A stretch of 31,179 nucleotides of DNA, from positions 1 to 31,179 of IMG/VR virus record IMGVR_UViG_2609459857_000004; one strand, written 5' to 3'. Under the pieces are notes generated by a model. It searched no databases. It worked only from the letters and a program-made list of their open reading frames with translations, and was not told the origin of the DNA. Positions within the stretch are counted from its first letter, which is position 1. Every line of letters begins with the position of its first letter. Positions 30,853 through 31,179 of the stretch are shown here, piece after piece. The position numbers and the translations under genes were made by a program. Origin of the DNA: a virus (Duplodnaviria > Heunggongvirae > Uroviricota > Caudoviricetes).

Positions 30853-30887
30853 GTTCTTTTTTTGTGGTGAGAGATGAGGCAAAATTA

Positions 30888-31179
30888 GGTAATGGTGCCA
30901 ACTTACTGATTTAGTGTATGATGGTGTTTTTGAGGTGCTCCCGTGGCTTCCATCTCCATCAGTTGTCCCTCCTGTTCAGCTACTGACGGGGTGGTGCGTA
31001 ACGGCAAAAGCACCGCCGGACATCAGCGCTATCTCTGCTCTCACTGCCGTAAAACATGGCAACTGCAGTTCACTTACACCGCTTCTCAACCCGGTACGCA
31101 CCAGAAAATCATTGATATGGCCATGAATGGCGTTGGATGCCGGGCAACCGCCCGCATTATGGGCGTTGGCCTCAACACG
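30888..31179 (+). mobile_element. IS1 insertion sequence, left end with start of insA (continues beyond window)
   Basis: GGTAATGGTGCCAACTTACTGATTTAGTGTATGATGGTGTTTTTGAGGTGCTCC matches the recalled IS1 terminal inverted repeat; begins 36 bp after the tape measure stop. Confidence 0.85.
30944..31179 (+). CDS. insA: IS1 InsA (partial, truncated by window end)
   Basis: GTG-initiated frame translating to [43 protein letters not shown]..., matching recalled InsA. Confidence 0.75.

Follow-up and report, generated by a model that had tools for sequence, protein, structure and literature searches.

An IS1 element in place of an accessory cassette in the tail operon of a prophage related to phage phiP27

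Introduction

If a viral contig ends within an insertion sequence directly behind a tail gene, is the prophage broken there, or only its assembly? This question is raised by the 3′ end of the stretch of DNA analysed here (the window), a Caudoviricetes record of 31,179 nt (IMGVR_UViG_2609459857_000004) in which the tape measure gene is followed by the beginning of an IS1 element. The original prediction, made from the letters of the window alone, was that IS1 probably disrupts or polarises the distal tail and baseplate genes and may make the prophage defective. Such a contig end does look like that of a truncated, dead prophage; here, the second half lies on another contig.

Results and Discussion

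The left junction of IS1

The tape measure gene (28903..30852, plus strand) is intact in the list of open reading frames, encodes 649 aa (Pfam PhageMin_Tail; PHROG tail length tape measure) and ends with a TGA stop at 30850-30852. Behind it lies an AT-rich spacer of 35 nt (30853..30887, plus strand; GTTCTTTTTTTGTGGTGAGAGATGAGGCAAAATTA), which is common to 13 uninterrupted relatives and absent from phage phiP27. Compared with these relatives, the spacer is the surviving left edge of a moron cassette, ending in the left target of IS1, ...GCAAAATTA. At the junction, positions 30887/30888, ...GAGGCAAAATTA is followed directly by GGTAATGGTGCC, with 35 nt between stop and IS1. IS1 begins with the 36th base after the stop (30888), the distance that had been predicted, and its nt 1-292 (30888..31179, plus strand) run in the orientation of the phage late genes to the end of the window.

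Alignment to full-length IS1 copies identified the left terminal inverted repeat (30888..30910, plus strand) as the IS1X2-like variant GGTAATGGTGCCAACTTACTGAT. Gene call and translation place the 5′ part of insA, 79 of 91 codons in an open frame with a GTG start at 30943, at 30943..31179 (plus strand); the gene call on this start (L007 12041-12278) returned the Pfam domains Zn_ribbon_InsA and HTH_Tnp_IS1. A consensus scan alone yielded one sigma-70-like site, with 0.9 expected by chance: GTGCCA-16-TATGAT (30895..30922, plus strand) overlaps the left inverted repeat and sits where the insA promoter of IS1 is to be expected. The segment 30888-31179 matches IS1 in 4,965 of 5,426 complete E. coli genomes (E about 1e-140). 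The best full-length matches to IS1 nt 1-292 are 99.0-99.3% identical, and no match of 100% over these nucleotides was present in the collections searched.

By exact look-up, the tape measure protein was found on four public contigs, among them JNNA01000071.1 (65,556 bp; contig 71 in the following) of the E. coli draft assembly GCA_000700165.1. Window positions 18903-31179 are 100% identical to positions 53279-65555 of this contig, and the last base of the window is 1 nt short of the contig end. The sequence stops at 31179 because the short-read assembly broke at the IS1 repeat.

The second half of the prophage

The other end of IS1, which was to be sought beyond the window, is present in the same assembly. 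It was traced by exact look-up of the downstream proteins of the uninterrupted relative L005, an ENA metagenome assembly. Four of these proteins are KDT07992-KDT07995, encoded on the 34,613-bp contig JNNA01000025.1 (contig 25; locus L025) of GCA_000700165.1; the tape measure protein of the window is KDT04824. Contig 25 begins inside IS1: its nt 1-252 correspond to IS1 nt 517-768, with the right terminal repeat ...AAGTTGGAGTCATTACC at 230-252. Across the right junction, ...AAGTTGGAGTCATTACC is followed by GAGACAGTATGG or, in a longer read-out, by GAGACAGTATGGAC..., and 8 nt past the IS1 end stands the ATG of an intact gene for a DNA-circularization/baseplate-hub protein. An identical right junction was found in the Logan assembly of SRR1186595. 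Exact-pattern scans of genome, viral and metagenome contig collections gave no match to the left junction, and neither junction is carried by any complete E. coli genome examined.

Both contigs reach into the chromosome. Contig 71 carries yccU-hspQ-rlmI-yccX-tusE-yccA, followed by the integrase gene, whose end coincides with window position 1. Contig 25 continues from the baseplate and fibre genes to tRNA-Ser(UGA) (serT), which contains attR, and hyaA-F. A 60-bp direct repeat, the 3′ part of tRNA-Ser(UGA), occurs at L032 5162-5221 and L025 8882-8941; the copy next to int lies 142-201 nt before window position 1, the other inside the intact tRNA gene. These repeats are attL and attR, and the prophage is thus inserted into serT in the interval from yccA to hyaA. 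The genes yccA, serT and hyaA are adjacent in E. coli K-12, with which the chromosomal flanks of the prophage are collinear. The two IS1 parts have the same direction and belong to the same isoform. Since attL and attR, the chromosomal flanks, and the direction and isoform of IS1 all agree, contigs 71 and 25 are the halves of one prophage of ~40.4 kb.

The left contig holds IS1 nt 1-293 and the right contig nt 517-768; nt 294-516 are collapsed in the draft. As the contigs extend 293 nt and 252 nt into IS1, respectively, each part is suggested to be unique in the genome. A single copy explains this better than two would, and we infer that one IS1 copy bridges the two contigs.

Since the left junction forms the very end of a contig from a short-read draft, it could be an assembly artefact, in which a chimeric contig suggests an IS1 that the real genome lacks here. 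We give this explanation almost no weight, as the change from phage to IS1 sequence falls precisely on nt 1 of the left repeat and, in the reciprocal junction on the contig with the rest of the prophage, precisely on the final nt of the right repeat. The right junction recurs in an independent Logan assembly, and each of the two contigs is represented in three samples. The IS1 junction is real and lies inside the tail-gene operon.

The IS1 isoform

The terminal repeat had been described as a variant of a canonical end. Alignment to IS1 copies bears this out: the canonical end given for comparison, GGTGATGCTGCC, is that of IS1A, from which GGTAATGGTGCCAACTTACTGAT differs at positions 4 and 8. 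It is also at these two positions that the left repeat of the canonical element deviates from its right one. The first 87 nt of the variant end (GGTAATGGTGCC...) recur at 100% identity in 881 complete-genome records of E. coli, and full-length 768-bp copies with this end occur in E. coli and on Salmonella plasmids, one of them labelled tnpA_IS1X2 by PLSDB. Copies with the variant end split genes and are flanked by 8-bp target duplications of their own; therefore, this isoform transposes. Judged from these copies, the variant repeat is that of a common, active IS1X2-like isoform and not unusual.

The copy in the prophage is a mosaic, in which nt 1-87 and nt 517-768 are IS1X2-like (each 100% identical to IS1X2-labelled copies), whereas positions 88-127 follow IS1A. 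It belongs to the IS1 family by its imperfect terminal repeats of ~23 bp beginning GGT(A/G)ATG, by both ends aligning with full-length IS1 and by its nucleotide identity to described isoforms. The coding capacity visible on the contigs comprises the N-terminal 79 aa of InsA and the C-terminal 78 aa of a DDE_Tnp_IS1 domain, with the region of the -1 frameshift that fuses insA and insB′ in IS1 (nt 294-516) lying off the contigs.

Uninterrupted relatives carry a putative moron cassette

The tape measure protein is encoded identically, without IS1 downstream, at two loci, L005 and L006 (a Logan assembly), which share 99.89% and 99.81% identity, respectively, with the window up to position 30887. 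Another 11 E. coli loci have the same 25 nt before the junction, giving 13 uninterrupted relatives in total. Alignment to such relatives had been proposed as a check on the insertion, and the IS1 junction is absent from all 13 that share the flank. At the site, these loci read ...GGCAAAATTA followed by TCGCGTAACATGC... and continue into an ORF of 160 aa. The gene order in the relatives is tape measure, 160-aa ORF, terminator and DNA-circularization/baseplate-hub gene. Thus, the expectation that IS1 occupies the place of the next tail gene has to be corrected, as the closest relatives have a 553-bp moron cassette there first.

The product of the 160-aa ORF is RefSeq WP_032083313.1, a hypothetical protein (PHROG 5586, function unknown), whose N terminus, MTVAILTSCC, resembles by eye a lipoprotein signal with lipobox. 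A strong terminator-like hairpin with 10 pairs, AAGCCGCCAGAAATTGGCGGTTT plus a T-run, is located 3′ of the ORF. The cassette, its edges included, has a GC content of 36-37% vs 52-54% in its neighbours, and nothing else in the tail operon is as rich in AT; a consensus promoter for it was looked for and not found. The cassette is absent from phiP27 and is therefore accessory (a putative moron) rather than a virion gene. Its position and the signal suggest that the 160-aa protein may be a surface or exclusion protein made in the lysogen. The protein is widespread in E. coli prophages (530 blocks in the index), and a 75%-identical homologue exists in Yersinia enterocolitica.

Loss of the cassette

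Missing between the two junctions are the 553 bp that correspond to L005 11986-12538, i.e., the whole moron ORF and its terminator, with IS1 in their place. The 9 nt next to IS1 are GCAAAATTA on the left and GAGACAGTA on the right; no target-site duplication links them, so that this expected mark of an insertion is lacking. Simple IS1 transposition leaves a duplication of 8-9 bp on both sides. The missing duplication and the missing 553 bp together therefore show that this is not a simple IS1 insertion. A simple insertion into a moron-less, phiP27-like ancestor was considered as well and rejected, given the moron-type 35-nt flank and the lack of a duplication. The right junction that a simple insertion would produce (right repeat, 0-20 nt, then TCGCGTAAC...) was not found in the genome contig collection.

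The arrangement agrees with an adjacent deletion: the IS is kept, the boundary of the deletion is the IS terminus, no duplication is present and the flanks are collinear across what we infer to be a single copy. Where an IS lacks target duplications, adjacent deletion or recombination between IS copies is the usual explanation (PMC11708052). In the present case, IS1 would have transposed to the site of one of the two junctions, within the AT-rich cassette or on its border. A deletion by IS1 of adjacent DNA, running to the other junction, would then have taken out the cassette and, with it, one of the two target repeats; alternatively, recombination between two nearby IS1 copies would have led to the same end state. 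IS1 is known to prefer AT-rich targets. We consider it highly probable that IS1 insertion, followed by IS1-mediated adjacent deletion or by recombination between nearby copies, replaced the 553-bp moron, and that the prophage need not be defective.

Another arrangement that would yield the same contig ends is one with two IS1 copies in direct orientation flanking the moron, or other DNA, with the 553 bp kept on a small contig. Each junction could then have its own 8-9 bp duplication within the hidden segment. IS1 nt 294-516 are on neither of the two contigs, and exact copies of the moron protein do occur on many contigs of <2 kb in public assemblies. However, two insertions within 553 bp would be needed, and, if assemblers behave as we suppose, the two copies would have to be different isoform mosaics, as the 293-nt and 252-nt parts each imply uniqueness. 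Missing duplications, moreover, are usually due to adjacent deletions. Altogether, we regard a two-copy arrangement as improbable and retain the replacement of the moron by one IS1 copy.

Five E. coli genomes appeared to cover both flank and IS1 in full. The one examined, A23, has an unrelated IS1A between yejO and narP (L001 6000-6045) with an 8-bp target duplication. Its target reads CAAAATTC vs CAAAATTA in the window, a resemblance sufficient for megablast to report 100% coverage of flank and IS1. This similarity likely reflects the taste of IS1 for AT-rich targets, or chance.

Consequences for the tail genes

None of the tail coding sequences is interrupted by IS1. From position 253 on, contig 25 is 99.96% identical to L005 12539-20487, and the downstream genes are full length (463, 351, 177, 137, 360, 196, 402 and 181 aa, followed by a fibre protein of 497 aa). 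The claim that IS1 disrupts the distal tail and baseplate genes does not stand: intact genes downstream are the very observation that the original prediction had named as speaking against it. Only the 553-bp accessory cassette has been lost, and the baseplate and fibre genes as well as attR are all found on JNNA01000025.1. The exchange of 553 bp for the 768 bp of IS1 makes the prophage 215 bp longer than its uninterrupted relatives.

Effects on expression are a different matter. The Shine-Dalgarno sequence of the DNA-circularization gene is changed from GGAGA to CGAGA, with the loss of one G, and the computed duplex with the 3′ end of 16S rRNA weakens from -6.4 to -3.0 kcal/mol. To reach the distal tail genes, RNA polymerase would have to traverse IS1, and Rho-dependent polarity in the mostly untranslated insB′ is possible. 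Inspection of the right repeat by eye for a hybrid promoter directed outward gave nothing convincing. The window encodes a Q-type late antiterminator (13560..14126, plus strand; Pfam DUF1133, 4.8e-105, and Phage_antitermQ; PHROG anti-termination protein Q-like, 4.8e-80). From Q through the tape measure gene, every gene is on the same strand. Once modified by Q, RNA polymerase would probably transcribe past IS1 with much of the polarity suppressed.

Polar effects of IS1 are a classical observation for both orientations of the element. Polarity might accordingly abolish distal tail and baseplate expression altogether, leaving a defective prophage that makes heads and DNA without functional tails. 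IS1 does belong to the transcription unit of the tail genes, and 8 nt separate it from the ATG of an essential one, whose expression may be lowered by roughly 420 nt of mostly untranslated insB′ in addition to the weaker Shine-Dalgarno pairing, and related tail modules in Shigella are IS-riddled remnants. We nevertheless find this outcome doubtful, given that no coding sequence is broken, that the Q-type antiterminator is encoded on the same strand as the genes leading to the tape measure, that late transcription in the uninterrupted relatives already has an intrinsic terminator to read through at this place, and that the genome is lengthened so little. In addition, Shigella phage SfIV, which was induced by UV, is plaque-forming even though IS1 separates its Q gene from its lysis genes (PMC3851460). 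Phage P1 carries IS1, too. With the moron replaced and the virion genes untouched, a tentative further reading is that the prophage, being only 215 bp longer than its relatives, may still be inducible and package IS1; it might then act as a phage vehicle for the IS1X2-like isoform, and morons might be turned over by IS-mediated replacement.

IS elements also occur in related tail modules elsewhere. Shigella flexneri and S. sonnei contain IS-bounded remnants of ~4-5.8 kb of the same tail module. At L022 5385-5412 (S. flexneri, Logan SRR36308047), an independent IS1 in opposite orientation is located 31 nt inside the DNA-circularization gene; this tail neighbourhood has therefore been struck by IS1 more than once.

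Implications for annotation

The replacement of a moron by IS1 is ordinary, already-known biology and has no bearing on any open biological question; its main use is for annotation. The locus is a case in which IS1 prunes the cargo genes of a prophage and at the same time breaks draft assemblies, and in which defectiveness is not callable from the end of a contig.

Comparison with known phages and IS1 elements

Among known phages, one of the closest is the Stx2e phage phiP27 (NC_003356). Its module from portal to tape measure is 96% identical to the one analysed here, and its baseplate and fibre genes are 97% identical and in the same order. The 96% identity to phiP27 L47 extends to window position 30842/30843, so that the last codons of the tape measure gene form the left edge of the differing region. 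Having neither moron nor IS1, phiP27 continues from the tape measure stop through a 15-nt spacer to the DNA-circularization gene. Unlike phiP27, the prophage lacks stx2e, has a Rac-like early region and is integrated at serT. It is thus a mosaic of a Rac-type early region and a phiP27-type virion module.

The early region (window 1-14200) contains genes for an 818-aa RecE-like exonuclease VIII, YdaS/YdaT-like proteins, DUF977, DUF968 and RusA. On the minus strand at 10640-11360, a RelE/HigB-type toxin of 136 aa (Pfam RelE, 2.8e-46) is paired with a 105-aa HTH antitoxin-like gene. The slot at 15729-16731, which in phiP27 holds two tRNAs and stx2e, has a tRNA-Gly(UCC) at 16007-16081 and an unknown 132-aa ORF without Pfam hit at 16199-16597. 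No Shiga toxin genes were found in this slot, and the prophage is stx-negative.

Regarding the position of IS1, SfIV and P1 are functional phages with the element in their late region. In SfIV it is situated within or next to Q-dependent late transcription, as is the case here, and has the same orientation. SfIV is a Mu-like-tailed lambdoid phage that is inducible and plaque-forming, whereas viability of the present prophage would be a prediction from its sequence; its IS1 stands directly in front of a tail gene, that of SfIV between Q and the lysis genes.

The element itself is like IS1X2 and IS1A in its 23-bp terminal repeat, the zinc-ribbon/HTH N terminus of insA and the DDE_Tnp_IS1 C terminus. 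It differs from the IS1X2-labelled copies in being a mosaic at positions 88-127 and in lacking a target duplication. Adjacent deletions promoted by IS1 were reportedly described by Reif and Saedler in 1975 for the gal region. The prophage shares with such classical deletions that the IS is kept, that the deletion starts exactly at the IS terminus and that no target duplication is present; unlike them, it is a natural isolate that presents the end state only, the simple-insertion intermediate not having been observed.
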